Positions 6,545-22,996 are shown, counted from the stretch's first letter. The stretch is DNA of 64,000 nucleotides from an uncultured Acidobacteriaceae bacterium (GCA_963774255.1 CAVZEH010000024.1:59610-123609), one strand, 5' to 3'. Made by a program: numbers and translations. Notes: a model not told the origin generated them from the letters alone.

Positions 6545-6872
6545 TCGAGTTTCACGCGCGTTTGCGTTCTCCTCATACCCACTGTAGACACGACTGCGCC
6601 CGCTCGCCGAATGAAAACTACCGCTCCAAGGCACGCTGGAAGCTGCGCGGCGATACCCACAATGGGTTTCGGGTCGATTCTGTTTTGTGACTCAATTCGA
6701 GCGGAACAGCGGAACGGTCCCATCTGGCGTTGCTGCCAAAGATCAGGAGGGGAAGGCCCAGAATCGCTCAATTTGAAAAGCAACAGGTTTTAACGCACCT
6801 GCGTCGACAAGCGTGGTCGATCAAAAATACTTCCTATAGCAACGGAAGATTTCCGATAAGAGTGTCAGGCCC
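6545..6872. repeat. Copy 1 (distal part only) of the ~570-bp island repeat (part B)
   Basis: Near-identical by eye to 13305-13640 and 15095-15430. Homology starts abruptly at GAGTTTCAC (6545), about 100 bp after the kinase stop, and ends inside the terminal segment (GTGTCAGGCCCGAGAT). Confidence 0.8.
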
Positions 6873-6914
6873 GAGATGGAAAAGTGAGCCGCATTGGTAC
6901 GCGACGTTCAGCGT

Positions 6915-7475
6915 TCACAATGCGTTCGTTTTCACCTCAAAACGTCCGTCAATTCTTTTAATGGCAGTTCGGTAAAATTTGCCAGCCGCGTCCTCGCATT
7001 CAATGAGAATTCCGCGATCGTCGATCATATTGGCCGTTAACTCTATTACATCGTCGGCCAGCGTGTTTGTGAAATACAAGGTGAACGGCATCCCCACCCC
7101 CACGGTCCCGAGGTTAATTTTGTTGGTCCGTTCTGAATTCAGAAATCTCCAAGTGGTTTTCAGGGCCACTCCGGGCCCGACGTTGCATAGAATTGCCCTC
7201 TTTGCAGGGGAGGGTTCTTCATCAATCTTGAAAAAGGGGCGCCGGGCAGCTTGCCCTTGCAAGCGCATCTCGTTCGCCTGTGCATTCGCCGCCACGACTT
7301 GGGCGTTAGCCGCCTTGACTTGCTCATCAGCAGCCTTCGCCTGAGAATCAGCGGCTCTAGCTTGCTTCCATCCCACTCGAATCAGAATAATAGTGGCCAG
7401 AAAGAGCAACGCTTGAATGAGTAGGCTGATTTGATCCTTGTAGTTCTCCAACCACCAGAACAGTTTGCCAGTCAT
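6915..7475 (-). CDS. Hypothetical membrane-anchored protein (gene X, intact copy)
   Basis: 186 aa. N-terminal TM helix ISLLIQALLFLATIILIRVGW, an Ala/Lys/Gln-rich repeat stretch (AKAADSQAKAADEQVKAANAQVVAANAQ), then a C-terminal globular part. A decayed paralogue lies at 12426-13067. Confidence 0.5.
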   Translation of the reverse strand: MTGKLFWWLENYKDQISLLIQALLFLATIILIRVGWKQARAADSQAKAADEQVKAANAQVVAANAQANEMRLQGQAARRPFFKIDEEPSPAKRAILCNVGPGVALKTTWRFLNSERTNKINLGTVGVGMPFTLYFTNTLADDVIELTANMIDDRGILIECEDAAGKFYRTAIKRIDGRFEVKTNAL

Positions 7476-7586
7476 TACAGCAGGGTAACAGCGACTTCAA
7501 TCGGTCAGCGGCCATTCCAAGCGAGGCTATCAAGCCACTTGCGACAAACTTGCGACAAAACCTTGTTTGCAGATTATTGTTTTGAA

Positions 7587-7695
7587 GCTAAGTCTTTTGT
7601 TTTATTGGCGCCCCTAAGCACGCAAAGTTTGAACCTCTTCGCTGAAAACGTCTCCCAAGCTGAGGCTTTGAGTGCCGAGATCGCGATTATTTTGC
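7587..7695. repeat. Copy 1 (proximal part A) of the island repeat, truncated by an IS110 fragment
   Basis: GCTAAGTCTTTTGTTTTATTGGCGCCCCTAAGCACGCAAAGTTTGAACC... matches 13108-13215 and 14897-15003. Homology stops at 7695, where the transposase fragment begins. Confidence 0.8.
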
Positions 7696-7699
7696 TCCA

Positions 7700-8043
7700 A
7701 TGAGTTGAGCGGAGGGAGAATTCTCAAGAAGCGAAACCGGAAGGTTGTCCATCGTGCAGCTACCGCTTTCCGCATGGCTGCCTCCACGCTTCGGACAAGC
7801 CAAAGCTATCTCGGTGCGAAGTTCCGTCGCCTTCGTAGCCGTCTTGGTCCACCTAAAGCAATCACCGCCATGGCCCGCACCTTGGCCATCCTCTTCTACC
7901 GCATGCTCAAGTTCGGACAAGACTACCTGGATCGCGGAACCGAGTTCTATGAGCAAAGGCAGCGAGACCAGCAGCTTCAATACTTACACAAAAAGGCTGC
8001 TCAACTCGGCTTCCAAGTCGTCGCATCACCGCACACTCCATAG
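7700..8043 (+). pseudogene. IS110-family transposase, C-terminal fragment only
   Basis: The translation ...SYLGAKFRRLRSRLGPPKAITAMARTLAILFYRMLKFGQDYLDRGTEFYEQ... matches the C-terminal region of IS110-type transposases (compare ...GVAKVAAARKLAVRLYWMLR in the intact copy at 48736-49773). No N-terminal DEDD domain is present. Confidence 0.7.
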
Positions 8044-8705
8044 CGAGTTTCTGGAGAGTACAGCGCGACAGATAGAAGAGAACCTATTATTTTTATGGTT
8101 CGGCAATCGGATTGGTATTGTCGGCCTGCTGCACGACTATGGTTATGGCCAATTCATCGAGGCGATCCACAATCGATTGCCGACGCGCTCCGCGATCAAA
8201 GAGTCGCTCGGAAAACCGTGGACCGCGCGATGCGAGGCTTTCTTGAGCTTGATGATTGAGCATCGCGAACTCCCTGGGGCGAGAATCAGCTTGGAATTCT
8301 GAGGCATGATTTGTCTCAGCCATATTGACACCAGCCGGCATTAGCGAATATAGTGATCGCGCGCCCGGGGCATTGATCTCTCTTTCCATCGCTCTCTTCA
8401 TGCACCGGGTTGAACGGCCAACTAATCTTTACCGTCCAGTACCATCCGGCTTCCGGCTCCGGGCCAAAACACACAATCCATTGAACGACGTTCCATTCCA
8501 GCACTCGGGTCTCTTATTCCGATCCTCCGGAATTTCCTGTCTGGCTTGAGCACGCTCGTTCCCAGGAGGAAGTTTTCTGCGCCGGAAACGCCGCCACTGC
8601 GAAAGAGTTTGTGGCGGCGGGAGAGCCAGGTAGCGGAACCGGCGGGAAAACCAACAGCCTTGTCCTGGCAGCACTCAGACTCAGTTTGAAACGCAGGAGA
8701 AGACC

Positions 8706-10685
8706 ATGAAACGCCTGTTCAGCCCTCTCGCCGTAATCATGCTGTTGGCCGCGCCGTTGATTTCCAGCGCGCAGAAGGCCGCCGTGGCCGGGGTGAAGAA
8801 TCTGGCGGCCGCAGCCGCGTTGCAAGCGGGTGGAGACAGCGCTGCGTCCCGTCCAAACATTCTCTTCATCATCATGGACGATGTGGGCATCGATCAGATG
8901 AGGATATTCGGCTATGGCGGATTGACCCCGCCAGGCACGCCGAATATAGATACCATTGCGCGCGCCGGGGTGCGATTCAGGAATGTTTGGGCGATGCCGG
9001 AGTGCTCGCCGAGCCGCGCCATATTCTTTGAGGGACGCTTTCCCCTGCGCACCAAGGTGTACGGCGCCATTCTGGATGACGATCTGGCCAATTCGCAGGT
9101 ATCGCCGTATGAAGCTACGATGCCGAAGCTGCTCAAAAGGCGCAACTACGATAGCGCCATGTTTGGCAAGTTTCACCTTGCCGGACCAACCTTCAATCCC
9201 TTCGGTCAAGCCACACCACATGCATTGGGATGGGACTTTTTCGACGGATTTCTTGAAGGAGCGCCGCACCCCATCGATACCACTGCGGGCGGTGTTGCCC
9301 CTGCCGGCACCTATACCTGCGGGTTTGTGCCGAATGCAAATTTTGCCAACGGAGCGGACAGCGGCGCCTGCTACACCGTGAGCAACAGTTGCGCGGTAAT
9401 CTCTAAAAACGCGGCGAATCGGACGCCGGGAAAGGTATGCGTGGAACAAGGAGGCATCTTTGTCCCCAATCAAGTATGCCAATCGAGCCCGCCGGCTGGT
9501 GTGAACTTCAATCAAGACAACGGGTATTACGTTTGGAACAGGGTCTTTAATAATCCCGATGGCTCCGTGGTGGCGCTCCCTCTAACAGATCCGCGGACCC
9601 GGGGCTACGTATCAGAGGCAACCACGGCCGCGACCATCAGTTGGATCAATTCGGAGAAAGCCAAGGGCGGGAAGTGGATGGCGACCGTCAGCTTTGCCGA
9701 TGCGCACACGCCATATCAACAGCCTCCCAATTCACTTCTCCCCCCGCTGTCAGAGCTTACCAACGGCTTCCAGTGCACAGGAAACGAGCCGAGGAACGTA
9801 CTTGCGACGCGTGTGCTGAGCAACCAGATGATCGAAGCCATGGACACGGAAATTGGCCAGATTCTGATTGGAACAGGATTAGCCACCGCTAATTCCGACG
9901 GCAGCCTGAATTATCACCCCGAAACGACCGATACCATGGTGGTTGTTGTGGGGGATAACGGCACATTCGCGCCAGGTGTGAAGGCGCCTTTCGATGTAAA
10001 TCGCGCAAAAGGCTACGTATATCAGACCGGAGTATGGGTGCCTCTGATCGTTTCCGGTCCTCTGGTCAGCGGACCCGACCGCGACGTGGCCTCGATGGTG
10101 AACGTTACCGATATTTTTCAGCTATTCGGGGAGATTGCAGGAATAGACGTTCACAAAGCAGTGCCGAAGTCTCACATTCTGGATTCCGCTTCCATGCTGC
10201 CCTATCTTACCAATCCGGACCAGGGAAGTATCCGGCAGACTAACTTCACCCAGACGGGCAACAACATTCACCTCAACAATCAGCAGCCCCCGCCGTGCGT
10301 GATTCCCTTGACCTCGCCACCGACCTGTGTCCAAGTCTTTAGTGACAAGGGCGTTTGTGAGTACGAAGGCGGCGATTGGTACGGTCCTAATCCGACACAG
10401 GGTACTCAGCAGTTCGGTTCCTGCTGCGCGGTGCAGAACTCCGGACTTTACAATTCCACCGGTCTCAGCATTCTGCCCGATGCACAAACTTCGACACGCA
10501 ACGATAATTTCAAGCTGGTCCAGAAAATGGAACCAGACTGTTCGAGTTCTTCGGGATCGGACGTGACCACGAACGAGTTCTATGAGATCAACGAGGACGT
10601 CCGATTCCAAAAATTGACAAAGCCGCCGATAATCTTTGGAATCCTACCGCAGGCTGCCCGGCTGGTCTTGATGCGACGCAGTTGA
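8706..10685 (+). CDS. Secreted sulfatase (formylglycine-dependent), 3' end frame-disrupted
   Basis: Signal peptide MKRLFSPLAVIMLLAAPLISSAQKA. PNILFIIMDDVGIDQ and the C-x-P-x-R motif in PECSPSRAIFFEGR. The last ~25 codons look out of frame (see 10682-10939). Confidence 0.85.
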   Translation: MKRLFSPLAVIMLLAAPLISSAQKAAVAGVKNLAAAAALQAGGDSAASRPNILFIIMDDVGIDQMRIFGYGGLTPPGTPNIDTIARAGVRFRNVWAMPECSPSRAIFFEGRFPLRTKVYGAILDDDLANSQVSPYEATMPKLLKRRNYDSAMFGKFHLAGPTFNPFGQATPHALGWDFFDGFLEGAPHPIDTTAGGVAPAGTYTCGFVPNANFANGADSGACYTVSNSCAVISKNAANRTPGKVCVEQGGIFVPNQVCQSSPPAGVNFNQDNGYYVWNRVFNNPDGSVVALPLTDPRTRGYVSEATTAATISWINSEKAKGGKWMATVSFADAHTPYQQPPNSLLPPLSELTNGFQCTGNEPRNVLATRVLSNQMIEAMDTEIGQILIGTGLATANSDGSLNYHPETTDTMVVVVGDNGTFAPGVKAPFDVNRAKGYVYQTGVWVPLIVSGPLVSGPDRDVASMVNVTDIFQLFGEIAGIDVHKAVPKSHILDSASMLPYLTNPDQGSIRQTNFTQTGNNIHLNNQQPPPCVIPLTSPPTCVQVFSDKGVCEYEGGDWYGPNPTQGTQQFGSCCAVQNSGLYNSTGLSILPDAQTSTRNDNFKLVQKMEPDCSSSSGSDVTTNEFYEINEDVRFQKLTKPPIIFGILPQAARLVLMRRS

Positions 10686-10939
10686 AGAACTACAACCAAC
10701 TGCTGGGCGTTTTGCAATCGACGCTGTCGTCGGAACCACCCTGTCCCGGAGATGGAAACGAAGACAAGCGGGTGAACGCAAAAGACGTGGCGGATTGGTC
10801 CTCGTTCCTTCAGGATAATCCAGAGAGTCCCGGCTATAGTTCGAGTTGGTATGACTTTAATTTCGATGGGCTGACGAATGCTACGGATCTAAACGTGATC
10901 CTGGCCAATTTTGGGAAGAACTGCCTCAAGGCGCAGTAA
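10682..10939 (+). CDS. Dockerin-like C-terminal segment, probably the displaced end of the sulfatase
   Basis: This frame is open back to about 10586 and reads PKIDKAADNLWNPTAGCPAGLDATQLKNYNQLL... then two Ca-binding-like repeats (GDGNEDKRVNAKDV, DFNFDGLTNATDLNV). It is only reachable from the sulfatase by a frame change near the A5 run at 10609-10613. Confidence 0.5.
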   Translation: MKNYNQLLGVLQSTLSSEPPCPGDGNEDKRVNAKDVADWSSFLQDNPESPGYSSSWYDFNFDGLTNATDLNVILANFGKNCLKAQ

Positions 10940-11092
10940 GGGTAGTTGGAGTCGTTCTGAAGGTCGCTAAGAATCCAGACCACATGGATTCTTAGCCTCT
11001 CCTCCGGTCCTTTGCGTCGCTCAGCGCCGGGGTCCGTCCGAATGACTCCTCATCGATAGCAAATGAAGAAATGAAGAAATTTCGCTCACGCT

Positions 11093-12214
11093 TTGAGAGG
11101 TTTCATGTCACAATCACGATTTCTTATCCGGAGATGCAGCAGCCCGGCGGCGGGGTATTGGTTTGCGCTGGTCCTGTTTCTCTCTGCGCCAGCTTGGCTT
11201 CCGGCGGGCCACAGCGCCCTTCACGGTCAATCTGCACCGCGGAAGCGCCTACATAGCGCGATCTCTCACGGCCGGGTGCCCGCCGGCATGGCCTGGATTC
11301 CCGCCGGGGAATTCTGGATGGGCAGCGATGAACCGGAATTCACCGACGCCCGGCCGTGGCACCGGGTACGGCTGAGCGGCTTCTGGATTGACAAGACGAC
11401 CGTCACCAACGCGCAGTTTGCACGCTTCGTGGCCGCAACGCATTACGTCACCGTTGCCGAACGTAAACCCCGCGCCGAGGACTTTCCGGATGCCCCGCCT
11501 GAGAATCTTGTAGCAGGTTCGGTGGTGTTCACGCCGCCCGCTCATCCCGTGCCCTTGGACGATCAGATGCAATGGTGGAGCTATGTGAAAGGCGCTGACT
11601 GGCGGCACCCGGAAGGTCCAGGCAGCACGATCAAAGGCCGGGAAAACCACCCAGTAGTACAAATCGCTTATGAGGATGCTGAGGCATATGCCAGGTGGGC
11701 AGGAACGGCTCCCAACGGAAGCGGAATTTGAATACGCCGGACGTGGCGGACTTGACCGTCAGCCTTATGCGTGGGGAAGGGAGTTCAAGCCGGCAGGCAA
11801 GGTACATGGCAAATACATTCCAAGGGAGCTTCCCCGATCACAACACGGCTGCGGATGGCTACCTGAGGCGCAGCGCCGGTGGCTTCGTTCCCGCCCAATG
11901 GGTATGGACTCTATGACATGTCCGGTAACGTTTGGGAGTGGACGTCTGATTGGTATCGGCCTGACTACTACAAGACGCTGGCGAACAGTGGAACGGCCGC
12001 GGTAAATCCCACAGGGCCTAGGGAGAGCTTTGATCCCGCGGAGCCGGGCCTGCCGAAAAAGGTCCATCGCGGCGGCTCGTTCTTGTGCACAGATCAGTAT
12101 TGTTCGCGTTACATGCCGGGTGGGCGCGGCAAAGGCGAGCCGAGCACAGGGACCAATCACCTTGGATTTCGCTTGGTGAAGGATGCTTCCCCAGCCCCAA
12201 CTAGCGCCAACTGA
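11093..12214 (+). pseudogene. Formylglycine-generating enzyme (FGE/SUMF1 family), three frame disruptions
   Basis: FGE-like pieces lie in successive frames: GMAWIPAGEFWMGSD...YARWAG / RLPTEAEFEYAGRGGLDRQPYAWG / MANTFQGSFPDHNTAADGY / [25 protein letters not shown]...HRGGSFLC. The breaks are near 11704, 11801 and 11865. Confidence 0.8.
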
Positions 12215-12425
12215 CGGATACTCACGGGCGCATCTAATCATCCCCGGCTTCAAGGGAAAAACTCCTTTACTGATCTTTATTTCCTCGGGTGGGCCGAAGG
12301 CCTATAGCTGTAGCTTCGAGAATTATTTGTCGTAGGGTTTCAGAATTATTTGCCGTATTCAGGTCTATCCGGGGCCGATCACGAGGCTATCCCGCGCGGC
12401 TTCGACAACAGCTGTCGCGCGGTAC

Positions 12426-13067
12426 TCAAATCCCGGAATATGTTCTGGAGGGCTGATTTCGTATCTGCAGCGGGCCGCGAAGTACCTGCATCCAGCGTTC
12501 ACAATGCGTTCTTTTCACCTCAAAGCGTCCGTCAATTTTTTTAATGGCAGTCCGATAAGATTTGCCAGCCGCGTCCTCACATTCAATGAGAATTCCGCGA
12601 CCGTCAATCATATTGGCCGTTAAACTCTATTACATCGTCGGTCAGCGGGCCTGTGAAATACAAGGTGAACGGCATCCCGACCCCCACGGTCCCGAGGTTA
12701 ATTTGTTGGTCAGTTCTGAATTCAGAAATCTCCAAGTGGTTTTCAGGGCCACTCCAGGCCCGACGTTGCATAGAATTGCCCTCTTTGCAGAGGAGGTTTC
12801 TTGATCAATAGAGGAGGTTTCTTCATCAATCTTGAAAAAGGGGCGCCGGGCAGCTTGCCCTTGCAAGCGCATCTCGTTCGCCTGTGTATTCGCCGCCACG
12901 ACTTGGGCGTTAGCCGCCCTGACTTGCTCATCAGCAGCCTTCGCCTGAGAATCAGCGGCTTTAGCTTGCTTCCATCCCACTCGAATCAGAATGATAGTGG
13001 CCAGAAACAGTAACGCTTGAATGAGTAGGCTGATTTGATCCTTGTAGTTCTCCAACCACCAGAACAA
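12426..13067 (-). pseudogene. Decayed paralogue of gene X
   Basis: Same N-terminus (FWWLENYKDQISLLIQALLFLATIILIRVGW). Relative to 6915-7475 it has a 1-nt loss near 12702, a 1-nt gain near 12622, a 21-nt tandem duplication (12790-12830) and an altered stop. The reading frame terminates at 12642. Confidence 0.6.
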
Positions 13068-13107
13068 AATTGCGCCAGAATCTTGTTTCCAGATTGCCGT
13101 TTTGCGG

Positions 13108-13673
13108 TTAAGTCTTTTGTTTTATTGGCGTCCCTAAGCACGCAAAGTTTGAACCTCTTCGCTGAAAACGTCTCCCAAGCTGAGGCTTTGAGTGCCGAGA
13201 TCGCGATTATTTTGCAGCCGTTTGCGAGATAATGCCATTCCCGTTGACACGCAAAACGAGTTGGAACCAAAGAGGAAGCGTAATCCCAAGATGGCAAGAA
13301 TGGTGCGAGTTTCACACGCATTTGCGTTCTCCTCATACCCACTGTAGGCACGACTGCGCCCACCCGCCGAATGAAAATTACCGCTCCAAGGCACGCTGGA
13401 AGCTGCGCGGCGATACCCACAATGGTTCCGGGTCGATTTCTGTTTTGTGACTCAATTCGAGCGGAACAGCGGAACGGTTCCATCTGGCGTTGCTGCCAAA
13501 GATCAGGAGGCGAAGGCCCAGAATCGCTCAATTTGAAAAGCAACAGGTTTTGACGCACGTGCGTCAACAAGCGTGGTCGATCAAAAATACTTGCTATAGC
13601 AACGGAAGATTTCCGATAAGAGTGTCAGGGTCGGCCCGAGATTAGCTATCGTCCCGTCTGTCCCCCTACTTCC
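13108..13673. repeat. Copy 2 (complete, parts A+B) of the ~570-bp island repeat
   Basis: Collinear with 14897-15483 along its whole length. It starts with a tRNA-Glu junction mimic and ends with a C-rich terminal segment, ...GATTAGCTATCGTCCCGTCTGTCCCCCTACTTCC. No protein-like frame. Confidence 0.85.
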
Positions 13674-13682
13674 CACCAGCTC

Positions 13683-14102
13683 TCATGGTAGCTTTGCGCT
13701 TGTAGCTGGATCGCGCGGAATTGGCATGGTCGTCGCAATTTGTCGGAGCTGTTCCCTTCGCTCAATCTCTCCCTGATCCTCTTGCTTGACGCGCGCCTTG
13801 TTACGCCTTAGAAGCTCTGCGGTGACTGCCTTTCGCTCTTCGAGCTGTTTAGATGTTGATACGCCGTCATTTTCAGGATTTTCGAACTCCGTTCGAATCT
13901 CGCCAAACAGCTGCAATGTATTATTTCGAGGCTCGCTCGGGACTACATAGAATTCTCCACATGTGGGCAAGGTCGAAAAATACTGCCGAAGACTTTCACC
14001 GTCTTCGGTTGGAATCCAGCCGTGGCGTATGGTCCATTGCGTTTCACGCAACCGTTTATAGAGAACGATATGACACTGCCTGGTTGGTTTCATAGACTCC
14101 AT
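13683..14102 (-). CDS. Hypothetical protein (cassette gene 2)
   Basis: The ORF is open to 14150. The start MESMKPTRQCHIVLYKRL... at 14102 follows GGTGGAG. The C-terminal half is charged and coiled-coil-like. No recognisable motif. Confidence 0.4.
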   Translation of the reverse strand: MESMKPTRQCHIVLYKRLRETQWTIRHGWIPTEDGESLRQYFSTLPTCGEFYVVPSEPRNNTLQLFGEIRTEFENPENDGVSTSKQLEERKAVTAELLRRNKARVKQEDQGEIERREQLRQIATTMPIPRDPATSAKLP

Positions 14103-14225
14103 AGCTCCACCTGCATGGGAAGGGCCCCGCATACAGCGTAATCCCCACAACAGTACGTTTTGGCAAGTCTGCTCGATCCCATATCCACATCAATGGATCG
14201 TTTGAAGTCACCGCCATCACATGGC

Positions 14226-14645
14226 TTAGATCAACGGAGCGCAGATCGCAGGAAATCTTGGGAAAGACACAGCGCCATCAATCACTAAGGGCGGCAAGGT
14301 AGAGTAACTCGGCTCCATCGGAGACGCAGGCAAATCGGGTGTGCGGGTGGTCCCGATGAGCGTCAATTCGACACCCTCAAGTCGGATGTGATGGCCCTCG
14401 ACGTCGAGGTCCAGGCCGATGTTAGACACGACTTGTCCCGCGCGCAGAATATTTCGGCCCGACGGGATTTCGACTCGCGCCCGGGCTCGCACGGATGGGT
14501 CTTGTCTTACATCAACGTCCAGATTGTTATAACGGTAAACCCAGGCCGGCTTCTGATTTTCGTCGAAACACGACGAGGAGCCGTTGTCGGGCGCCCGATG
14601 CGAACTGCGGTGGGTCAAGTACTCTAATATCTGAGCGAATGTCAT
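14226..14645 (-). CDS. Hypothetical protein (cassette gene 1)
   Basis: 139-aa ORF (MTFAQILEYLTHRSSHRAPDNG...). No recognisable motif. It is co-directional with 13683-14102 and lies inside the inverted-repeat-bounded segment. Confidence 0.4.
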   Translation of the reverse strand: MTFAQILEYLTHRSSHRAPDNGSSSCFDENQKPAWVYRYNNLDVDVRQDPSVRARARVEIPSGRNILRAGQVVSNIGLDLDVEGHHIRLEGVELTLIGTTRTPDLPASPMEPSYSTLPPLVIDGAVSFPRFPAICAPLI

Positions 14646-14812
14646 TACTAAAGCATACGCCGTTCATACTTAAGTTGTATGCGCACAATATTGGCAGTTT
14701 ATGGTAGATGCCCCATCCCCGTAGCCCATTCGGCGACGAATAATATGAGATCTATCCTAAGTGTATCTGTATCTGCTACTTACGCACATAGTAGCTCGAC
14801 CCTGCGACAGAA

Positions 14813-14880
14813 AAATAGGGGGACAGACTGGACGATACCTAATCCCGGCCCGAGCGTGACACTCTTATTGGAAATCTTCC
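14813..14880. repeat. Inverted copy of the terminal ~68 nt of the island repeat
   Basis: The reverse complement (GGAAGATTTCCAATAAGAGTGTCACGCTCGGGCCGGGATTAGGTATCGTCCAGTCTGTCCCCCTATTT) matches 13604-13671 and 15396-15463 at roughly 60 of 68 positions by eye. Confidence 0.8.
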
Positions 14881-14896
14881 ATTGATTTTTCATTTT

Positions 14897-15483
14897 GCTA
14901 AGTTAATAATTTTATTGGCGTCCCTAAGCACGCAAAGTTTGAACCACTTCGCTGAAAACGTCTCCAAGGTGAGGCTTTGAGTACCGAGATCGCGATTATT
15001 TGCAGTCGTTTGCGAGATAATGCCATTCCCGTTGACACGCAAAACGAGTTGGAACCAAAGAGGAAGCGTAATCCCAAGATGGCAAGAATGGCGCGAGTTT
15101 CACACGCGTTTGCGTTCTCCTCATACCCACTGTAGGCACGACTGCGCCCGCCCGCCGAATGAAAACTACCGCTCCAAGCCACGCTGGAAGCTGTGCGGCG
15201 ATACCCACAATGGGTTTCGGGTCGATTCTGTTTTGTGACTCAATTCGAGCGGAACAGCGGAACGGTTCCATCTGGCGTTGCTGCCAAAGATCAGGAGAGG
15301 AAGGCACCGGAATCGCTGAATTTGAAAAGCAACAGGCTTTGACGCACCTGCATCGACAAGCGTGGTCGATCAAAAATACTTCCTATAGCAACGGAAGATT
15401 TCCGATAAGAGTGCCAGGTTCGGCCCGAGATTAGGTATCGTCCATTCTGTCCCCCTATTTTCCCCCTGTCTCCCCCTATTTCC
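14897..15483. repeat. Copy 3 (complete, parts A+B) of the ~570-bp island repeat
   Basis: Collinear with 13108-13673. The terminal C-rich motif is doubled (TGTCCCCCTATTTTCCCCCTGTCTCCCCCTATTTCC). It abuts the 3' end of the GHKL-module operon. Confidence 0.85.
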
Positions 15484-15525
15484 AACGAACTGCTGACGTC
15501 TCACGAGCTCCTGACGTTCTTTCGC

Positions 15526-16251
15526 TCAGAGTAGTGGTGGTGAACCCGCCCGCCACGGTATGAATTCATGAGGTAAGAGATTAAGAAGTTGACTTGGCTC
15601 CATAGCGTAGAGGTCATATGTCACATCGAACTGTTGCACTACGTCAATAAATCTGCGAACCGTGCCAGGCTTTCTCTTGGTCGATGCCGCTCCGCGTTTC
15701 GGGCGTTGCCTCTCAGGATCGTAGTACAGTCTATTGGCAGCACCAATGATTGCCCGATTTGTGATGAATTCCTGACGTGATGCAAACTGCTCCATCAGAT
15801 CGCTTAGCTGATCGACAGGTCCCTGCAGTAGGAGGTTGGCCTCGATCCCATAAAGTTGATAAACGCGAAATGGTCCTGCGAGTAGATGGCGATAATATCT
15901 CCAGCTCGCTGTGCCAGGAATATAAAGTGCCTCAGATTTAACGACCCGCTGATCCTCTGAGTCACGCGGACAAACGCGATCGAAATAGAAGAGGGCCAAC
16001 CAAGCCCAAAGACCGCGATTGTAATTCACGTCCTGCAGGCCACTGATTATGGAACTCAGGTACTCAGCTGCTTCCAGCCGAGTCGAGAATTCCCGATCCT
16101 CAACTTCCCTAGCCGAAACTAGTTGTGTTGAAGTTGCTGGGTTGTCGAGCAGTTCCAGCGGCACCGGCAGGTCGTCCCCAGCCCTCGTTCGGGCAAGAAA
16201 GTCGGCAAAATGTTGAATGCCTTCATCGTTCAATATCCCGATCTGCTTCAT
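15526..16251 (-). CDS. Hypothetical protein E (last gene of the GHKL module)
   Basis: 241 aa (MKQIGILNDEGIQHFADFLARTRAG...). ATGA overlap with the upstream ORF. Natural-looking composition, no motif I can assign. Confidence 0.55.
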   Translation of the reverse strand: MKQIGILNDEGIQHFADFLARTRAGDDLPVPLELLDNPATSTQLVSAREVEDREFSTRLEAAEYLSSIISGLQDVNYNRGLWAWLALFYFDRVCPRDSEDQRVVKSEALYIPGTASWRYYRHLLAGPFRVYQLYGIEANLLLQGPVDQLSDLMEQFASRQEFITNRAIIGAANRLYYDPERQRPKRGAASTKRKPGTVRRFIDVVQQFDVTYDLYAMEPSQLLNLLPHEFIPWRAGSPPLL

Positions 16252-16952
16252 GAGTGTTCCTCAAGTGCGAGAGATTCCAGAAAATTAATGCAAGCTGGCT
16301 GGCGCTCGCAGAAGGCCTGCACCGCCGAATCAATCCAAGGCCTCACATCGTAATCCTCGGCCGGAGGCTCTCCGATATGAGGCAGGGCAGTCACAAAATG
16401 GACCCACTGGTCGCGCCAGTCATCCCCCTCCGAGTCATATTCGTAATCATCATCCTGGAGAATAGACGTCAGGATCTCCCGCACGACCGCCGGATATACC
16501 AGCGCGAAAAATGTCGGATTCGATCGTATATACTCCTTATTATCGATCCGCTGATTCACTACCAGCGTTGGCGTTGCGCTGTCAGCGATCTCAAGCCTCC
16601 ACGGAAGGTTTCCCAGTTCCTCGAATCTCACCTCCAGGATGCAGACACGGTTACCGAAGCCTTCAGTGGGATTGGCAATAAGGCCGTCAGCCTCAGCCAG
16701 CAGTCGCCCCTGCTCGCCTCGGAAGTCAGTCACTTTCACCCGGAAATAGATCAGCTCACGGTTGTCAATTTCGTGGAGGGTCCGGTCGGCATCACATCGT
16801 GGCTGGGCAACTGTTCCGTAATCAAACCGCATATAAGAGGTCCGGTAGTAAGCCTCGATATAAATCCGACCGTCAGGGGGAAGGTTCAGAATCCGAGAGA
16901 TCGATCCTGGCGTCGAAACTGGGTGGATTGGGTTCCTGCTTCTTGAGAGCAA
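16248..16952 (-). CDS. Hypothetical protein D (acidic C-terminal region)
   Basis: 234 aa if it starts at the TTG at 16952. There is no in-frame ATG near the 5' end. It is in the same frame as the upstream ORF C, separated by one TGA plus 18 sense codons. It contains DDDYEYDSEGDDWRDQW. Confidence 0.5.
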   Translation of the reverse strand: MLSRSRNPIHPVSTPGSISRILNLPPDGRIYIEAYYRTSYMRFDYGTVAQPRCDADRTLHEIDNRELIYFRVKVTDFRGEQGRLLAEADGLIANPTEGFGNRVCILEVRFEELGNLPWRLEIADSATPTLVVNQRIDNKEYIRSNPTFFALVYPAVVREILTSILQDDDYEYDSEGDDWRDQWVHFVTALPHIGEPPAEDYDVRPWIDSAVQAFCERQPACINFLESLALEEHS

Positions 16953-17006
16953 TCTGAGTGCTCTTTCGCGGGATTTTCCTGCGGTTCGTATAATTGAATG
17001 TGCGTT

Positions 17007-17957
17007 TCATAACTGTTCAATCTCCGACTGTTTCAAGCGGATCTGGAGATCACGATGTTCGTCGAATCCCGTCAACCTGACATTCGAATTAGGACCCAGC
17101 AGGTTGACAACGAGCTGATTTTCAGCGCGCGACACGATGTCGGCGGCTTCAGACTCCAGGGTGAAATCACCGGACTCAATATGGAAGTCTTCGGGAACAT
17201 ACCGCTTTACGGAATCACCATTGCGGACAGCGTAACCCAGCCGTACTGTCACCTGCCTGGGGCTGACCGGCACCGCCGGATTCATGCTGACGCGGAAACC
17301 ACCGACGATTCTCTCAAGTCGGACGGGCGGCGTTGATTTGGGAGGCAGGGGCGGCTTGATTGGTGTCTTCCGTTTCGTTCTGCCCGACAGCACGCCCGTA
17401 CCTTCACCATCCTTTCCTTCCTCCGAAGCCTGCACTACAAAGAAGAGATCTTTCAGGAGGTCCCTGTCCTTCTCCCGGCTTGCAGCAGTCAGTGTCCGAA
17501 TCAGGTTTGCGACGCTGTTCTTGACAAACCGCAATGTGTACGTCCCATGATCGTACTTGTTCTTGAATTTTTCTGATCGATCCTGCCACTCCGTGTGAGC
17601 GGGATTCTCAGCGTCACCCAGAAGCTTCCCCAACGGTTTGTCGTCGATCACGACAAGAGCTCTAACCCCGCGCTCTGCAGGAACCTTCTGGTTCGCTACG
17701 GTAATGTCCTGCCGGACAAAGTGAATCTCGCCTTTTTCGAGCTGCGGGTCACGTTCCAGATAAATGGTGAACACGCCAAGTTGAAGAGTCTTTCCTTTTT
17801 CCTTCACCCACGGACTGATCCTGACAGCCAGGCGCTGTTTGTCCTCGTATCGTTGCGTGAGCGTTGCCTTGTTTTCGTCCGAGAATTTCACAAAGTCCCA
17901 GACCGGTGCCTTGTCCTGAGGCAACGGGTAGTGTGTTACAAGTTCAGCGTCCGGCAT
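17007..17957 (-). CDS. Hypothetical protein C, probably the C-terminal two-thirds of the GHKL protein
   Basis: 316 aa from the ATG at 17957. The same frame is open and protein-like upstream (ATAEQFNDRELENLLKTFDLVGWSQT-M...). It contains GDAENPAHTEWQDRSEKFKNKYDHGTYTL. No assignable family. Confidence 0.55.
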   Translation of the reverse strand: MPDAELVTHYPLPQDKAPVWDFVKFSDENKATLTQRYEDKQRLAVRISPWVKEKGKTLQLGVFTIYLERDPQLEKGEIHFVRQDITVANQKVPAERGVRALVVIDDKPLGKLLGDAENPAHTEWQDRSEKFKNKYDHGTYTLRFVKNSVANLIRTLTAASREKDRDLLKDLFFVVQASEEGKDGEGTGVLSGRTKRKTPIKPPLPPKSTPPVRLERIVGGFRVSMNPAVPVSPRQVTVRLGYAVRNGDSVKRYVPEDFHIESGDFTLESEAADIVSRAENQLVVNLLGPNSNVRLTGFDEHRDLQIRLKQSEIEQL

Positions 17958-18927
17958 GGTTTGCGACCATCCGACAAGATCGAAAGTCTTGAGCAGATTC
18001 TCCAGTTCGCGATCGTTGAACTGTTCCGCGGTGGCGCGCGCGCAGGGTTCCCTGCGAAAGCGCGATCGTACCGGAGGGAGACTCCAGCAGAACCGAAAGC
18101 GTGCCCCGAATCAACGGCGCAAAGTAGTGTCGGATGAAAGCCTTGGCTACTTCTTTGAAGGTTATGGCAGGATCAGGAAATGGAATAACGATCGAGAGAC
18201 CGGGGCCATCGCCTCTTCTTAGGTGGAACTGCTCCCCAAATTTGTCAATCAGCGCTCGATCTTCGACAGGTGTAACGAAATGATCTTCTTCCACGATCCC
18301 GAACCATCCGTAAGGAAAGTGCTTCACACCGTTCACCCGATGAATCTTAATAATCGATTGACCCATCAGCAGCATTCGCCCATCATTCCGGCGTTTGGTG
18401 AATCCAAAAAACGAGTGAATCCTCGAGGCGGCTGCAAAAACGGTGTGGCCGAGGCCCCAGCGTCCTCGATCAGATTCTTTCTTCCCTGACCGACCAAGGT
18501 TCCTCCAGAAATAGTAGAAATCGCTGGTTCCCTGGTTGTCATTTTCGTCTGGGTTAGCCTGAAGTGGATCGCCTTGCAGGCCCCTTGTCCCAAAATCTTC
18601 GATGGCCAGGAAGGGAACAGGTCCATCCAATGCAGGTAATTCATCCGCTCGAATACCTGAATCAGGGGCCTGGATATGTGCTCTCAGGCTATTCAGATAA
18701 GAGTGGGCGGTTGCCGCAGATAATGCCCAACTGTCCGTACCGAAGACGACTCTAATCTGCACGTGGCCGTTCGCTCGAGCGTCCAGGGAGTTCTGATTGG
18801 ATTCTCGGACGAGTGCCGCAGCCAGACTGTCAATTGCGTCTGTACTGAAGAACTCGTCATGCACCGGATCGGCATTCATATCTGCCCGACCCATTGGCTT
18901 GAAACCCCATTTCGCGACGCTCATCAT
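17944..18927 (-). CDS. GHKL (MutL/MORC/Hsp90-type) ATPase domain protein
   Basis: Bergerat-fold motifs: N-box LVRESNQNSLDA, G1 AIEDFGTRGL, G2-like GRWGLGHTVF. AGGAG lies 7 nt before the ATGATG start. The last ~25 codons (RARHRGTVQRSRTGESAQDFRSCRMVANHAGR) look like out-of-frame read-through. Confidence 0.7.
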   Translation of the reverse strand: MMSVAKWGFKPMGRADMNADPVHDEFFSTDAIDSLAAALVRESNQNSLDARANGHVQIRVVFGTDSWALSAATAHSYLNSLRAHIQAPDSGIRADELPALDGPVPFLAIEDFGTRGLQGDPLQANPDENDNQGTSDFYYFWRNLGRSGKKESDRGRWGLGHTVFAAASRIHSFFGFTKRRNDGRMLLMGQSIIKIHRVNGVKHFPYGWFGIVEEDHFVTPVEDRALIDKFGEQFHLRRGDGPGLSIVIPFPDPAITFKEVAKAFIRHYFAPLIRGTLSVLLESPSGTIALSQGTLRARHRGTVQRSRTGESAQDFRSCRMVANHAGR

Positions 18928-18939
18928 TGACGCTCCTGT

Positions 18940-19575
18940 TCAGTTCGTTCCAGCCAGCTGCTGTTCCGGCAGCAATGTGAACAGCTCCTTTGCTGTCGAC
19001 ATCAAATCGATCTTCGGCTTCAATGAATAACCCTGACGGCCATGCTGGATGATCAAATCCTGTTGCCTCATCCATGCCAGACAGAGATAAACCTGGTAAC
19101 TCGGAATTTCACTGCCGTCGCGAGAGTTCTTAAGGGGCATGATTGCCTCTACCACGAAGCGATTTTTCCGGACCGCAGCCGACGAAAGAGCGGTTACCAC
19201 ATCTATGAGGACGCCGAAAGGAGCCTTGTGCTCGTACTCGCCCTTCCGGCCCTTTGACCAACCGACTTTTACAAGTGCCTCTCCGTTCCGACAAAACTTT
19301 GGATATTCGTTAGCGCGACGCGTTTTCCGCGGCGTGGGAGATGATTGCGGGATATGCAAAAGCTCATTGGTCAAAGCGTGCACATGAAGCGCAGCCGCCG
19401 TCTCAGCGGGGGCCTTTTTCTCAATTTCGGACCGAAGATCCGCAAGGCTGCGCGCCCATCCCGCAAGCTCGACGATCAGGCCATAATCACCGCCGGTGGC
19501 TGTCTCCGCCAGCAGCTTCTTGAGATTGTTTTCGGCATCGCCAACAATGCGGGATGCTTCACCTATTGCATTCAT
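18940..19575 (-). CDS. Hypothetical protein A (first gene of the GHKL module)
   Basis: The ORF opens at 19599 (GTG), but a promoter-like element overlaps that codon. The ATG at 19575 gives MNAIGEASRIVGDAENNLKKLL... (211 aa). No assignable motif. The C-terminal part might be winged-helix-like, which is speculative. Confidence 0.55.
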   Translation of the reverse strand: MNAIGEASRIVGDAENNLKKLLAETATGGDYGLIVELAGWARSLADLRSEIEKKAPAETAAALHVHALTNELLHIPQSSPTPRKTRRANEYPKFCRNGEALVKVGWSKGRKGEYEHKAPFGVLIDVVTALSSAAVRKNRFVVEAIMPLKNSRDGSEIPSYQVYLCLAWMRQQDLIIQHGRQGYSLKPKIDLMSTAKELFTLLPEQQLAGTN

Positions 19576-19588
19576 AAAGTATAAAAAC

Positions 19589-19616
19589 AATATAACCACA
19601 ATACAGATACTGTCAA
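19589..19616 (-). promoter_or_regulatory. Sigma70-like promoter for the five-ORF GHKL module
   Basis: The minus strand reads TTGACA (19616-19611), a 16-nt spacer, then TATATT (19594-19589). It sits 13 nt upstream of the ATG at 19575, in an AT-rich patch of the dcm-A gap. Confidence 0.35.
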
Positions 19617-19772
19617 GCTTTTTTCTCCTTGTCCTTGCGCTACTTTCTGTGAACGATCAGTTTCGGCAGGCAGATAGCCGCCATAAGGCGCCCTTACCGG
19701 GGAGCCAATAGCATCTTCGAAAGGTAGGAGCAACATTCAGGTGATGGAACAATCTGGCCGACAAGGACGTCG

Positions 19773-21407
19773 TTAGCGTGAACCGAGCTCTGCGGATTGG
19801 TTATTAACTGGTTCGGGATCAAATACCAATGGCAATCTCTGTTGATCGGGAGTCCCGTAGCAGGCAGTCGCCACTTGTTCCACAACACGGGCGATTTGCG
19901 TTGCAAGAAGCGGCGGAACAGCGTTTCCAACCTGGATGTATTGTTCTGTGCGGCTTCCGCAAAACATATAGTTGTCAGGGAATGTTTGTAGCCGCGCAGC
20001 CTCACGAACGGTCAGGCTTCTGCACTGCTTTTCATCGTAATGGATATAGTAATGCCCGTCTTTAGCGATATGACTCGTGATAGTTGTCGCGGGCTTGTCG
20101 CCCAACTGCACCCTAAACCTGTCATCAAAATACTCCTGCTTCTTCTCGTCAAGGACGTTCTTATGCTTGGGAAGTAAGCCGGAAGGAAAATCGCGTAGCT
20201 CTGGTGAGATTTTCAGCAATTTTGCATATGACGCTGCATACAGGTATCTGTAAAGGTCCTCAACCATGTGAGGCCTGCTCGAATGATTGCACACCCCGTT
20301 TAGTCGCTTGTCACAATACCACCTTGACTTGTATCTCGAAGTTGCCTGGTATGACAGAAACTCGCCACCTCGCCCAAAACGTGGAATCTTAAGATGTTTA
20401 AGGATCCAACGGATCTCAGCCCTGAGAATGCTCCCGTTGCCATTAGGAATATCATCAAGGATGCCATCTTCCCTAATGCCGTTGAGGGCCCGACGCCACT
20501 CGTCCTTTCCATCGTTCGTACGCGATAGCCCGCTGCGCAGTCGTGGCAGACCCGAAAGTACTTCCGATGCGCTTATATGCCGTTCGTAAGTTTGGAGTAT
20601 AGGTATACGGGCTGGCGCAAGATCACTTCGCACCCCGATTAGGATTATGCGGTGTCGTGACTGCGGAATCCCAAAATCCTCGCACTTAATTATGAAATCG
20701 CAAGAATCGTATTCGGAACGGCCGTCTTCCGTGCGCGCTTTTGACTGAGCAGTTAGAGGGAAGAGATGATACCGGACTGGAGTACCGGCACCCGTGGCTT
20801 CGTGGGGTGCCGTCAGGTCACTCAGAATCTGACGAAATATTCCTTGTTTCCCAAGCTTCGAAGACAACAAGCCTTTGACATTTTCGAAGACAAAGATCGA
20901 TGGACGATGTTCGGCAAGTATCCGAAGGTACTCCTTATACAGAAAGACGCGGTGGTCGTTCGGATCAATTCCTCCATTCCGTGAACGTCCGATAAGGGAA
21001 TAGGCTTGGCATGGCGGTCCGCCACAAAGAATCCAACTAGATGATCCAGAGATTGCCGCACGAATCTTGTCGTCTGCCTTTTTTGGGTCCACCTTGCCAA
21101 GTTCTGCGTTCCACGACTCTGATCGGGCCGCCGCGGCCGCAACCGCATGCTTTTTGAAGAGCTGATCACGCGATAGCCGGCCTTGCAGGTGGAGGTAGTA
21201 ATCTTCGGGTACGTCAGAGGAGCGGAACTGACGGAAAAAACTCCGCAGTTCGAGCGTTTGGTGAGCAGCTTGGTCCTTCTCAATTGAAAGAACAATCTTA
21301 AAGGCAGGCTCTCCTGAACCACGGCGAACCGAAGAAAATCCTTCTCCGAGACCGCCTGGACCTGCGAATAAATCGACAAGAGGTATCGGCTTAATCTTTC
21401 TTTGCAT
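19773..21407 (-). CDS. dcm: DNA (cytosine-5)-methyltransferase
   Basis: Canonical motifs in order: DLFAGPGGLGEGF (I), GGPPCQAYS (IV), ENVKGLLS (VI), QSRHRIILIGV (VIII), REAARLQTFPDNY (IX), QVGNAVPPLLA (X). A long variable region lies between VIII and IX. Confidence 0.9.
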   Translation of the reverse strand: MQRKIKPIPLVDLFAGPGGLGEGFSSVRRGSGEPAFKIVLSIEKDQAAHQTLELRSFFRQFRSSDVPEDYYLHLQGRLSRDQLFKKHAVAAAAARSESWNAELGKVDPKKADDKIRAAISGSSSWILCGGPPCQAYSLIGRSRNGGIDPNDHRVFLYKEYLRILAEHRPSIFVFENVKGLLSSKLGKQGIFRQILSDLTAPHEATGAGTPVRYHLFPLTAQSKARTEDGRSEYDSCDFIIKCEDFGIPQSRHRIILIGVRSDLAPARIPILQTYERHISASEVLSGLPRLRSGLSRTNDGKDEWRRALNGIREDGILDDIPNGNGSILRAEIRWILKHLKIPRFGRGGEFLSYQATSRYKSRWYCDKRLNGVCNHSSRPHMVEDLYRYLYAASYAKLLKISPELRDFPSGLLPKHKNVLDEKKQEYFDDRFRVQLGDKPATTITSHIAKDGHYYIHYDEKQCRSLTVREAARLQTFPDNYMFCGSRTEQYIQVGNAVPPLLATQIARVVEQVATACYGTPDQQRLPLVFDPEPVNNQSAELGSR

Positions 21408-21810
21408 TGTTCAGGGATTGACAGAGTTTTTTCAGAAGTTCCGTTTCATTGTCCAGTTCACATTCCCAAACCACAATCACATTCCACCCCAGCTTCCTGA
21501 GTTTACGAGCATTATTCCGATCCCGTTCCACATTACCTAAAAGCTTATTGGCCCAAAATTCCGGTCTGCTTTTCGGTAACACACCGTTAGAGCATTTGGG
21601 GTGATGATGCCAGAAGCAGCCGTGCACAAAAAGTGCCGTATGAAATCGGGGCAACACAATATCGGGCTTTCCTGCCAGATCTTTACGGTGCAAGGAGAAG
21701 CGAAAACCTTGCCGATGTAGCAAGGAACGCACACGCCTCTCTGGAGAAGTGTCTTTGCCTCTGATTCGACCCATGTTCCAACTGCGTCGCCCTGGTGTTA
21801 AACGATCCAT
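21391..21810 (-). CDS. vsr: Very short patch repair endonuclease
   Basis: 139 aa with RSWNMGRIRGKDTSPE, KPDIVLPRFHTALFVHGCFWHHH and IVVWECEL. It overlaps dcm by 17 nt. Confidence 0.9.
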   Translation of the reverse strand: MDRLTPGRRSWNMGRIRGKDTSPERRVRSLLHRQGFRFSLHRKDLAGKPDIVLPRFHTALFVHGCFWHHHPKCSNGVLPKSRPEFWANKLLGNVERDRNNARKLRKLGWNVIVVWECELDNETELLKKLCQSLNNAKKD

Positions 21811-22192
21811 ATAGAAACTCCAGAGTCAGACAGGTGGATTTTCTGTAGATCAAGATCATGCCAGATCTTGCTGGACGATGTTGCTGATACTGCACACGGT
21901 GACTTTTGTCCGATAACTTTTCTTTTAGCGGTCTCCAAATCGCCTGGGACAGTCAACCAAACTCTAAGTATAGGAGACGTGCCCTCCTGTTTGTCAGAGA
22001 GAAATTCCGAGGTCGCCCTCCGTTGTTTGGCATCGAACTGGTTCGTGTCCGGCCCCTGATGAACTGTGTGGTCATGCGCGTTTGTTATCTCTACGGCGGA
22101 GGTTCTGGTGACATCATGACAAAGCCGTTTGTGAGCGGTCCCACGCTATCCGCATAGATGCGGGCATCAATCGGTGCTTGTGAGATCGTTGG

Positions 22193-22507
22193 TTACGCTC
22201 CTATCGATAAAACAAGGACGCGCTCCGTATCTAGTACCAGAAAACTGTGACGGGTCACGACATAGCCGTAATCGAAGTGACGCATCAGGTTCCCCTCGAA
22301 ATGAGACGGATTTGCCGTTGTCCATGCGAACGACGAGCTGCCCGCGTTGGCTGATCCGCTCGATGGTGCCGAGGTCGCGGTCGCCGACACCGATAACGCG
22401 TTGGGCTTGACCACGCCCGCGCTCCGCGTAATTCTTGTATCACGCGATCGACAGCTCCGTACTGCGTGGCATTGACATGCTGGCGGATATCGGTGAGTGC
22501 GATGCAT
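22193..22507 (-). pseudogene. Remnant of a conjugative relaxase/helicase (TraA/TrwC-like C-terminal region)
   Basis: Pieces in two minus-strand frames: RVIGVGDRDLGTIERISQRGQLVVRMDNGKSVSF and NLMRHFDYGYVVTRHSFLVLDTERVLVLS. They resemble the ...RHLDHGYA.T.H..QG.T.DRVLV region of MobA/TraA-type relaxase helicases. No intact ORF. Confidence 0.4.
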
Positions 22508-22905
22508 CCCGAATCAGCATGATCTGCGGCGCCTGACTCTGTCCTGCTGCATCCGGCGAATTACCCTATGCTTCGGCGTGAATAGTCTCCGCTTTGGTGA
22601 ACTGCCGCCCCGCCTCATGCTTCTGTTCCTGATATCGTGTGGAACTCGTCGGACGCAAAACTCTGGTACTGGTCCTTCTCCATCTCCGCGGCTCTCAAAG
22701 CTGCCGGGATTGCAGGCAAGGTGGGCTGGCATACCTTCCGTCATTCTTTCGCGACGATTCTGAAGTCGCATGGCGAAGATGTGAAGACGGTGCAGGATCT
22801 GCTACGGCATGCCAATGCAAGCGTGACCACCTCTACGCGCAGGCGGTGACCGATATCAAGCGCAGCGCGCAGAGCAAGGTGGCGAGACTGGTTTTTCAAG
22901 TCTGA
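22497..22905 (+). pseudogene. Tyrosine integrase, C-terminal remnant with frameshifts
   Basis: GWHTFRHSFATILKSHGEDVKTVQDLLRHANASVTT in one frame continues as LYAQAVTDIKRSAQSKVARLV in another. The N-terminal two-thirds of an integrase is missing. It sits 92 nt from the tRNA 3' end. Confidence 0.7.
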
Positions 22906-22996
22906 GAAGAACCCCGAGGAAGAGTGAAAAATCCTTATTGGACCTTTTTGGACCGGCGGCGAAATTGGGAATTTAGGCTAACTCTTTTGTTCTATT

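Follow-up and report, generated by a model that had tools for sequence, protein, structure and literature searches.

A stretch of 64,000 nucleotides from an uncultured Acidobacteriaceae bacterium (GCA_963774255.1, CAVZEH010000024.1:59610-123609), analyzed over its whole length and called the window below, contains a tRNA-Glu gene and an unclassified repeat whose copies begin with a mimic of the 3' end of that tRNA. The repeat is described here together with related loci that carry a gene for a large serine recombinase (LSR). The repeat unit is composite, since its first ~190 nt (the tail) are derived from coding sequence and the remaining ~370 nt (segment B) are noncoding. Two copies, at 13120-13677 and 14910-15466, are collinear and share 94% identity across 560 nt with three 1-nt indels, as an earlier note on this DNA had described. 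The first 108 nt of the unit (part A) recur at 7587-7695 with 90 to 97% identity, and its distal part is matched by 6537/6546-6877 with 94% identity. These pieces had been regarded as a single split third copy. However, their order on the plus strand is B (6546-6877), gene X (6909-7586), and A (7587-7695), which indicates that they are two different partial copies. In total, the window holds at least four copies and a solo inverted 72-nt piece, and the layout along the plus strand is B0, X1, A1 interrupted by IS110, X2, A2-tail-B2, an inverted repeat (IR), and A3-tail-B3. Neither nucleotide comparison nor a tail profile built from relatives only found further copies elsewhere in the 64 kb.

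All of the copies lie on the plus strand. Copy 0 (6546-6877), located beyond the 3' end of gene X1, consists of segment B only, with about 10 nt of the tail end kept and the last ~40 nt gone. Copy 1 (7587-7695) contains a trailer flank, the tRNA-end mimic (7606-7635, in the TGGCGCCCC variant), and the tail up to its 30th codon. A C-terminal fragment of an IS110-family transposase (7699-8040, plus strand; NF033542, E value of 5.6e-9) interrupts this copy at 7695/7696, in agreement with the earlier reading. Copy 2 comprises a trailer-like flank (13107-13125), the mimic (13126-13155), the tail (13125-13317), and segment B (13306-13677), which includes a 72-nt module at 13600-13671. Copy 3 has the same parts at 14897-14915 (partly diverged), 14916-14945 (TGGCGTCCC-13 nt-TTTGAACC), 14915-15105, and 15094-15466, and its segment B ends in the 72-nt module (15389-15461). 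The solo inverted copy of this terminal module (14812-14884, minus strand) is 89% complementary to 15389-15461 and 88% complementary to 13600-13671.

Coding origin of the tail

The first relative was obtained by scanning a genome collection, with one genome per species, using a 20-mer of the core as the query, which yielded one locus, L002, in an Acidobacteria metagenome-assembled genome (MAG). L002 and the window are identical over the 32-nt core and only ~80% identical over the next ~90 nt, and the differences are mostly synonymous in one plus-strand frame. Word search with the protein of this frame retrieved 10 short homologs, and profile search retrieved 89 clusters. The predicted tail proteins have unrelated N termini, and their conservation begins at L[AV]SLSTQSLN, which corresponds to the core. 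In eight DNA sequences, tail codons 11 to 31 carry 8, 9, and 31 substitutions at codon positions 1, 2, and 3, respectively, and core codons 1 to 10 are nearly invariant at all three positions. The proportions of synonymous (pS) and nonsynonymous (pN) differences in the tails of the relatives are 0.3 to 0.9 and 0.02 to 0.15, respectively. The substitution pattern and the invariant core codons indicate a coding sequence under purifying selection, with constraint at the DNA level over the core.

A nucleotide profile (nhmmer) built from the relatives alone gave exactly three matches in the window, over the full tail length, with E values of 1e-22 (copy 1), 2e-28 (copy 2), and 3e-30 (copy 3). The homologous stretches are 7604-7691, 13125-13317, and 14915-15105, and homology starts exactly at the mimic. 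The earlier statement that no frame in the repeat looks protein-like thus applies to segment B only. The frame is broken in every window copy, by an extra T in copies 1 and 2 (near 13208 in copy 2, causing a frameshift and a premature stop) and by the loss of a C in copy 3 (near 14962), and the tail of copy 1 is also truncated. Moreover, pN between the window tails and the relatives is raised to 0.14 to 0.19. The broken frames and the raised pN indicate that the window tails are pseudogenes.

It is extremely improbable that the ~570-nt unit encodes a structured noncoding RNA whose 3' end, on the minus strand, resembles a tRNA. The minus strand does end in T-loop-like and acceptor-CCA-like sequences. 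However, the Rfam search, which the earlier note had proposed as a check for an RNA family, gave no match to the repeat at the gathering threshold and none at an E value of ≤1; folding of the unit was no better than that of shuffled sequences (z = +0.38 for the minus strand and +1.17 for the plus strand); and the relatives keep only the coding part, with its third-codon-position substitution pattern. An intron-bearing tRNA or a tmRNA-like gene was also considered and rejected, as there is no 5' half and no match from ARAGORN or Rfam.

The profile search also revealed a distant tail-like branch (P0088, P0094, P0099, and P0105), consisting of ORFs (open reading frames) of 189 to 243 amino acids (aa) in which conservation begins from VDPSIQSLN. 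Members of this branch have the same AAAGTTTGAAC motif and a different acceptor-end mimic, and they continue into a conserved domain of ~100 aa. They may belong to related elements that use other tRNAs and have a far longer tail.

Serine recombinase elements and their probable attachment site at tRNA-Glu

Complete elements of 5.6 to 8.9 kb, with both junctions on one contig, were found at four loci in acidobacterial metagenomes and MAGs (L002, L005, L006, and L007). The recurrent order is core and tail, one to three genes, a resolvase-like protein of ~220 aa, and a 513-aa LSR. The LSR contains Resolvase, Recombinase, and Zn_ribbon_recom domains, and all of its Pfam domains lie at residues 10 to 343, upstream of the junction. 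Besides the four complete elements, the LSR gene was found in L003 and L035. The LSR end abuts tRNA-Glu or its 3' half in all four complete elements, and L035 has the same junction between the LSR and a tRNA half. L005 and L007 have the whole tRNA at this junction, L006 has a tRNA that runs off the contig, and L002 and L035 have a 45- to 49-nt 3' half. A direct repeat of 9 to 10 nt is present at both element ends in L005, L006, and L007.

In five loci, the LSR ORF crosses the junction into the tRNA, reading ...DEKGL on the element side and LASPTGFEPVLSP followed by the stop on the tRNA side. The last 13 codons of the integrated gene (L005:8989-9026, L007:5669-5709, and equivalents) come from the complement of the acceptor, T-arm, and anticodon loop of tRNA-Glu, and its stop is a TGA within the complement of the anticodon loop. 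At the attP-like junctions of L003 (sample ERZ25039592) and the more distant P0052, a C-terminal remnant of the LSR is in frame with the tail, with no stop between them. The left flank of L007 is also an LSR 3' remnant, but its frame is broken. The ORF crossing the junction and the in-frame remnants in L003 and P0052 indicate that the final codons of the LSR gene contain attP and that the tail is detached by integration. In the integrated state, the LSR ORF enters the tRNA gene and ends after 13 tRNA-encoded codons, and in the excised or tandem (attP) state its frame would continue into a tail of ~60 aa, encoded by the ~190 nt from the core onward; upon integration, this tail would be left at the far end of the element. 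Judged by its homology to these tails, the repeat start in the window is a decayed tail-coding region, probably of an LSR gene.

A conserved resolvase-type serine recombinase of ~220 aa occurs in L002, L003, L005, L006, and L007 (e.g., L007:2074-2733), with 61 to 81% identity between loci, and three of these five loci also have a protein of ~200 aa without a family match. Multimer resolution or a role as a directionality factor are possibilities for these two proteins.

The tail could instead be an independent small gene, e.g., for a directionality or regulatory factor, that starts at the junction NTG codon or at an internal start provided by the LSR 3' end in the circle. This explanation is rather unlikely, although most loci have TTG as the junction codon and L039 has ATG, AAAAAGG lies 5 to 8 nt upstream in the P arm, distant tail-like ORFs with a further conserved domain reach 189 to 243 aa, and the protein libraries lack an LSR-tail fusion. 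In attR, the sequence upstream of the tail differs from locus to locus and thus offers neither a conserved promoter nor a conserved ribosome-binding site. Furthermore, the junction codon of L003 is CTG, and the tail frame is the LSR frame, into which two LSR remnants run without a stop. If the tail is instead the C terminus of the LSR, a tentative proposal can be made for an acidobacterial LSR family that targets the tRNA-Glu 3' end and has attP in its own ORF. The free form of the enzyme would be long, with the ~60-aa tail, and the integrated form would be short, with 13 tRNA-encoded residues; this isoform switch could set the direction of recombination, and the window repeats would be shed tails. 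Should the activities of the two isoforms indeed differ, the switch would represent a novel mode of directionality control for serine integrases.

The window tRNA-Glu(TTC) gene (22997-23074, minus strand) presents its 3' end on the plus strand as TGGCGTCCC (22997-23005)-8 nt-TTTGAACC (23014-23021), which may form the B' half of an LSR attB. The ~20-nt tRNA trailer (22977-22996, minus strand; GCTAACTCTTTTGTTCTATT on the plus strand) resembles the flank at each repeat copy and would be the B arm of attB; it is also part of an identity block of ~66 nt of the tyrosine type. The match between the mimic and the tRNA junction reported in the earlier note is real, since its local-alignment score was reached by 0 of 5,000 shuffled sequences for copies 1 and 2 and by 12 of 5,000 for copy 3, and copies 1 and 2 are the best nonself matches to the junction in the whole window. 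The T-loop-like block noted further on is present as well, as TTTGAACC at 13 nt after TGGCGTCCC; the corresponding distance in the tRNA is 8 nt. Identity between the mimic and the tRNA is limited to 9 + 8 nt, and the 13 non-tRNA bases between these two blocks exceed the tRNA spacing by 5.

Eight independent loci lose homology exactly at TGG(C/T)GTCCC, and the C/T base of this core equals the discriminator base of the host tRNA wherever both are visible (L002, L005, L006, L007, and the window). The shared core TGGCGTCCC is the complement of the tRNA end ...GGGACGCCA. On sequence grounds, the mimic is the element-side attP half-site (P'), located at 7606-7635, 13126-13155, and 14916-14945. The gap between core and motif is 13 nt before TTTGAACC in P' and 8 nt before TT(T/C)GAACC in the tRNA, in the window and the relatives alike. 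For the Listeria LI integrase, the zinc-ribbon-domain (ZD) motif occupies half-site positions 16 to 24 in attP and 11 to 19 in attB, which is a shift of 5 bp (PMC3783163). The spacing of 13 versus 8 nt corresponds to this shift, and P' would thus carry the T-loop block of the tRNA 5 bp further out. The 5-base expansion in P' also moves the reading frame past the tRNA-encoded stop of the LSR. Strand exchange probably occurs within the core, in the CC run. If CC is taken as the center, TTTGAACC would be at positions 16 to 23 in P' and 11 to 18 in the tRNA. Because dyad symmetry between the left flank and P' is unclear, the CC crossover and the question of which protein domain reads which motif are matters of inference. 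The predicted attP of the excised form reads ...GAAAAAGGNTTGT, TGGYGTCCC, and TAAGCACNCAAAGTTTGAACC, and the restored attB would consist of the trailer followed by TGGYGTCCCCGA....

A metagenome contig, L001 (ENA ERZ25039553 contig_95201), is 100% identical over 1,132 nt to window positions 7614-6483, which cover X1 and B0, in a different chromosomal context. At the position of the window's P' and tail, it has a genuine tRNA-Glu half of 47 nt. L001 and copy 1 have the rare core variant TGGCGCCCC in common, so that the exchange would fall within the CC run, on the right-hand side of that base. The difference looks like a recent exchange of arms at the core or a strain-level rearrangement.

The proposal of the earlier note that the copies mark ends of integrative elements at tRNA-Glu, with the shared junction as an att site, can be kept, and the recombinase class that it implies, its coding content, and its element boundaries cannot. 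It had read the mimic as an att-core copy left by repeated integration of related elements into the tRNA, a reading that corresponds to a tRNA 3' end displaced by tyrosine-type integration. In this scenario, the copies would be direct repeats of the tRNA 3' end from successive tyrosine-integrase islands, and the 570 bp would be a conserved attP arm. An integrase remnant does adjoin the window tRNA-Glu, a tyrosine integrase abuts the core in L002 and P0033, and the ~20-nt trailer is common to the tRNA and the copies. Nevertheless, such an origin is highly improbable. Genuine repeats of this type at tRNA-Glu are exact 3' halves of 45 to 47 nt (L001, L002, and L036), whereas the mimic consists of two short matches with 5 extra bases in the gap and contains no contiguous tRNA 3' segment (typically at least 20 to 45 nt); in the relatives, it runs without a break into the coding 3' end of the LSR gene. 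The LSR gene is at the partner junction in the four complete elements, the supposed arm codes for protein in the relatives, and in the window no intact tyrosine integrase gene lies between the tRNA and the fragment. The integrases lie outside the core, which is the expected arrangement if the tRNA and a resident island were separated by an incoming LSR element.

Nor can the elements formerly delimited at 14897-22996, 13108-14896, and 7587-13107 be retained, since no copy in the window has the partner junction between an LSR end and a tRNA. Next to the true tRNA are its trailer and the tyrosine-integrase remnant, and 7587-13107 (containing the IS110 fragment, a sulfatase gene, a broken formylglycine-generating-enzyme [FGE] gene, and a copy of gene X) includes a gene that sits on the chromosomal (trailer) side in the relatives.

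Each repeat copy is thus likely an orphan attR-type junction of small LSR elements whose insertion site is the tRNA-Glu 3' end. On the plus strand, the unit would consist of ~20 nt of trailer (B arm), the core TGGCGTCCC, the P' half-site, the tail, and, in the window lineage, the ~370 nt of noncoding segment B downstream of the tail. As no LSR gene is left in the window, the copies are taken as orphan attR relics. The tRNA-Glu locus would be used both by tyrosine-integrase islands, which leave tRNA halves of 45 to 66 nt with the trailer, and by LSR elements, which would enter at the tRNA end or at leftover tRNA halves. Copies 1 and 2 share both arms. The simplest account is that a unit of X, trailer, core, tail, and B was multiplied by segmental duplication and then disrupted in association with IS110.

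Several observations weigh against this explanation. Neither the LSR nor the small resolvase was detected in the window by tblastn, so that the copies are assigned to LSR elements by their homology to relatives. Library searches yielded no tail-bearing protein of LSR length (0 of 89 tail-family clusters), and the LSR-tail fusion is consequently inferred rather than observed. No excised form of an element was seen. The left flank has no clear dyad symmetry with P'. For segment B, which accounts for 65% of the unit, there is neither a counterpart in any relative nor an assigned role, and the 73-nt inverted repeats bracketing copy 3 are not explained by the LSR model. The three or four attR copies may have arisen by duplication or by separate integrations into duplicated tRNA fragments.

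Comparison with known integration systems

Remnants that lack a recombinase and keep att sequences gather beside an integration hot spot in the accretion arrays of cis-mobilizable elements (CIMEs), such as those related to ICESt1/3 of Streptococcus thermophilus. The window copies resemble CIMEs in being recombinase-less att remnants. However, they have a single junction type (attR) and no partner site and are therefore not mobilizable as they stand.

The site architecture is that of a serine integrase. As in the sites of the Listeria A118/LI integrase, Bxb1, and phiC31, the sites are short, few bases are identical at the crossover, and the distal motif is 5 bp closer to the center in attB (PMC3783163). 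In addition, attP is next to the recombinase gene, and the relatives encode proteins with Resolvase, Recombinase, and Zn-ribbon domains. Two features are unusual, namely, the targeting of a tRNA gene at its 3' end and the location of attP within the recombinase ORF; the window also differs in having no recombinase gene. According to the Islander paper of 2014, no integrase of the serine family was then known to use a tRNA gene as its target (PMC4383910). Islander-type tyrosine islands, defined by a tRNA gene and a displaced 3' fragment, are similar in the tRNA used, the orientation, and the formation of arrays at one tRNA, and they coexist with the LSR elements here, as seen from the integrase remnant in the window and the 45- to 47-nt halves in L001, L002, and L036. 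The mimic differs from their fragments in being imperfect, with a 5-base expansion, and in the class of recombinase involved.

An attP inside the integrase gene is known from the archaeal SSV-type suicidal integrases, which are tyrosine recombinases and have been described as exclusive to archaea (PMC8371274). In both systems, the site is within the recombinase ORF and overlaps a tRNA-like sequence, and a 3' piece of the gene is separated upon integration. However, the split destroys the protein in SSV-type integrases, whereas here a serine recombinase from bacteria is involved and just the final codons would be exchanged (13 tRNA-encoded versus ~60 tail codons). In the integration-dependent immunity of mycobacteriophages, as outlined in PMC8092301 (citing Broussard 2013), attP is inside the repressor gene and the integrase is of the tyrosine type. 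By that outline, the two systems are similar in having attP near the 3' end of a gene, with free and integrated products that differ at the C terminus, and they differ in that the gene there is a repressor gene, whereas here it is that of the recombinase itself and the products are predicted.

The unclassified repeat can be annotated as relics, and the tRNA-Glu locus as a hot spot for two classes of recombinase, which explains local rearrangements, including the sibling contig L001 with its alternative arm. The window feature itself is a decayed relic, and the interest lies in the family behind it. The relatives are compact (~6 kb) serine-recombinase elements with a predictable and highly conserved target, the acceptor and T-arm of tRNA-Glu, and their attP and attB can be read directly from genomes. 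Serine integrases that target tRNA genes would be useful for integrase toolkits.

Segment B, gene X, and neighboring features

Segment B (about 13306-13677) shows no codon periodicity (12/13/15) and has stops in all frames. A tblastx comparison of segment B, gene X, and two further window ORFs of 139 and 155 aa with all related loci detected nothing outside the core and tail, and a promoter and terminator scan showed no excess over shuffled sequences. In the 72-nt module, a palindrome, CGGAAGATTTCCG, is present at 13604-13624, 15393-15413, and 6844-6864. In the solo inverted copy (14860-14880), it is replaced by TGGAAGATTTCCA, in which both sides have changed and the palindrome is preserved.

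These features raise the alternative that the unit, or segment B, is a miniature nonautonomous transposable element with terminal inverted repeats of 72 to 73 nt and that its association with att is incidental. Consistent with such an element, the complementary modules at 14812-14884 and 15389-15461 flank copy 3, segment B occurs on both sides of gene X, its 72-nt end is also found alone and inverted, and the change from CGGAAGATTTCCG to TGGAAGATTTCCA is two sided. A mobile element is nonetheless improbable, since there are no target-site duplications, the inverted repeats occur at copy 3 only, and dispersed copies are missing from the 64-kb window. They are also missing from plasmids and phages, in which blastn with the repeat unit gave no match, and from viral contigs, in which two 20- to 27-mers of the repeat gave none. 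In metagenomes, a 21-mer taken from the 72-nt module gave 21 matches, none of which extends past the pattern, and they are therefore regarded as chance matches. Finally, the relatives carry a conserved TAATACCCCTATCCGTACTTGAAC after the tail stop, to which the first bases of segment B align weakly, which argues for diverged downstream DNA rather than an insertion. Segment B is accordingly read as noncoding DNA that belongs downstream of the tail in this lineage, and its conservation among the window copies would be due solely to their recent duplication. The more specific idea of an insertion exactly at the tail stop codon was dropped, as L039 aligns residually across the boundary.

Gene X1 and its upstream region (6909-7586, minus strand; ORF 6915-7475, 186 aa) lie on the trailer side of copy 1. 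A frameshifted copy, X2 (12493-13066, minus strand; 92% identity to 6909-7462), lies on the trailer side of copy 2, a duplication that the earlier note had not mentioned. In L001 and L036, the same trailer and an X homolog (56% aa identity in L036) follow a true tRNA-Glu 3' half, which places both the trailer and gene X on the chromosomal side, outside the LSR element. The possibility that gene X belongs to an X-bearing minielement was rejected, because neither L036 nor L001 has a core or tail near its X gene.

The tyrosine integrase remnant in the window (22607-22893, plus strand) is a frameshifted C-terminal part of ~95 residues that points towards the tRNA. Among the relatives, tyrosine integrase genes adjoin the outer side of the core in P0033, where the integrase C terminus is called in frame with the tail, and in L002 (6848-7996). 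This arrangement suggests that the insertion point of LSR elements lies between tRNA-Glu and tyrosine-type islands already resident there.

Between the inward-facing 72-nt modules at 13600-13671 and 14813-14884, two minus-strand ORFs encode the proteins of 155 and 139 aa (13683-14645). These two proteins and that of gene X gave no hits to families in Pfam, NCBIfam, or PADLOC. A search for empty sites by exact-protein look-up of the kinase and the product of the tRNA-adjacent gene found neither protein on record. Sulfatase and FGE genes lie between copies 1 and 2 (8706-12214), and the FGE gene is split into two ORFs (11093-11731 and 11879-12214). The cargo between copy 3 and the tRNA (17007-21810) encodes a PDC-M33A candidate defense protein, a DrmMII-like C5 cytosine methylase (E value of 1e-94), and Vsr. 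The PDC-M33A match is made up of two adjacent ORFs (E values of 2e-10 and 1e-3), which apparently represent one split gene. Further along the window, two divergent Acido-Lenti-1 RNA motifs (Rfam RF01687), on which the assignment of the window to Acidobacteria was based, are located at 56888-56934 (minus strand) and 57063-57109 (plus strand), with scores of 50 and 54 bits.

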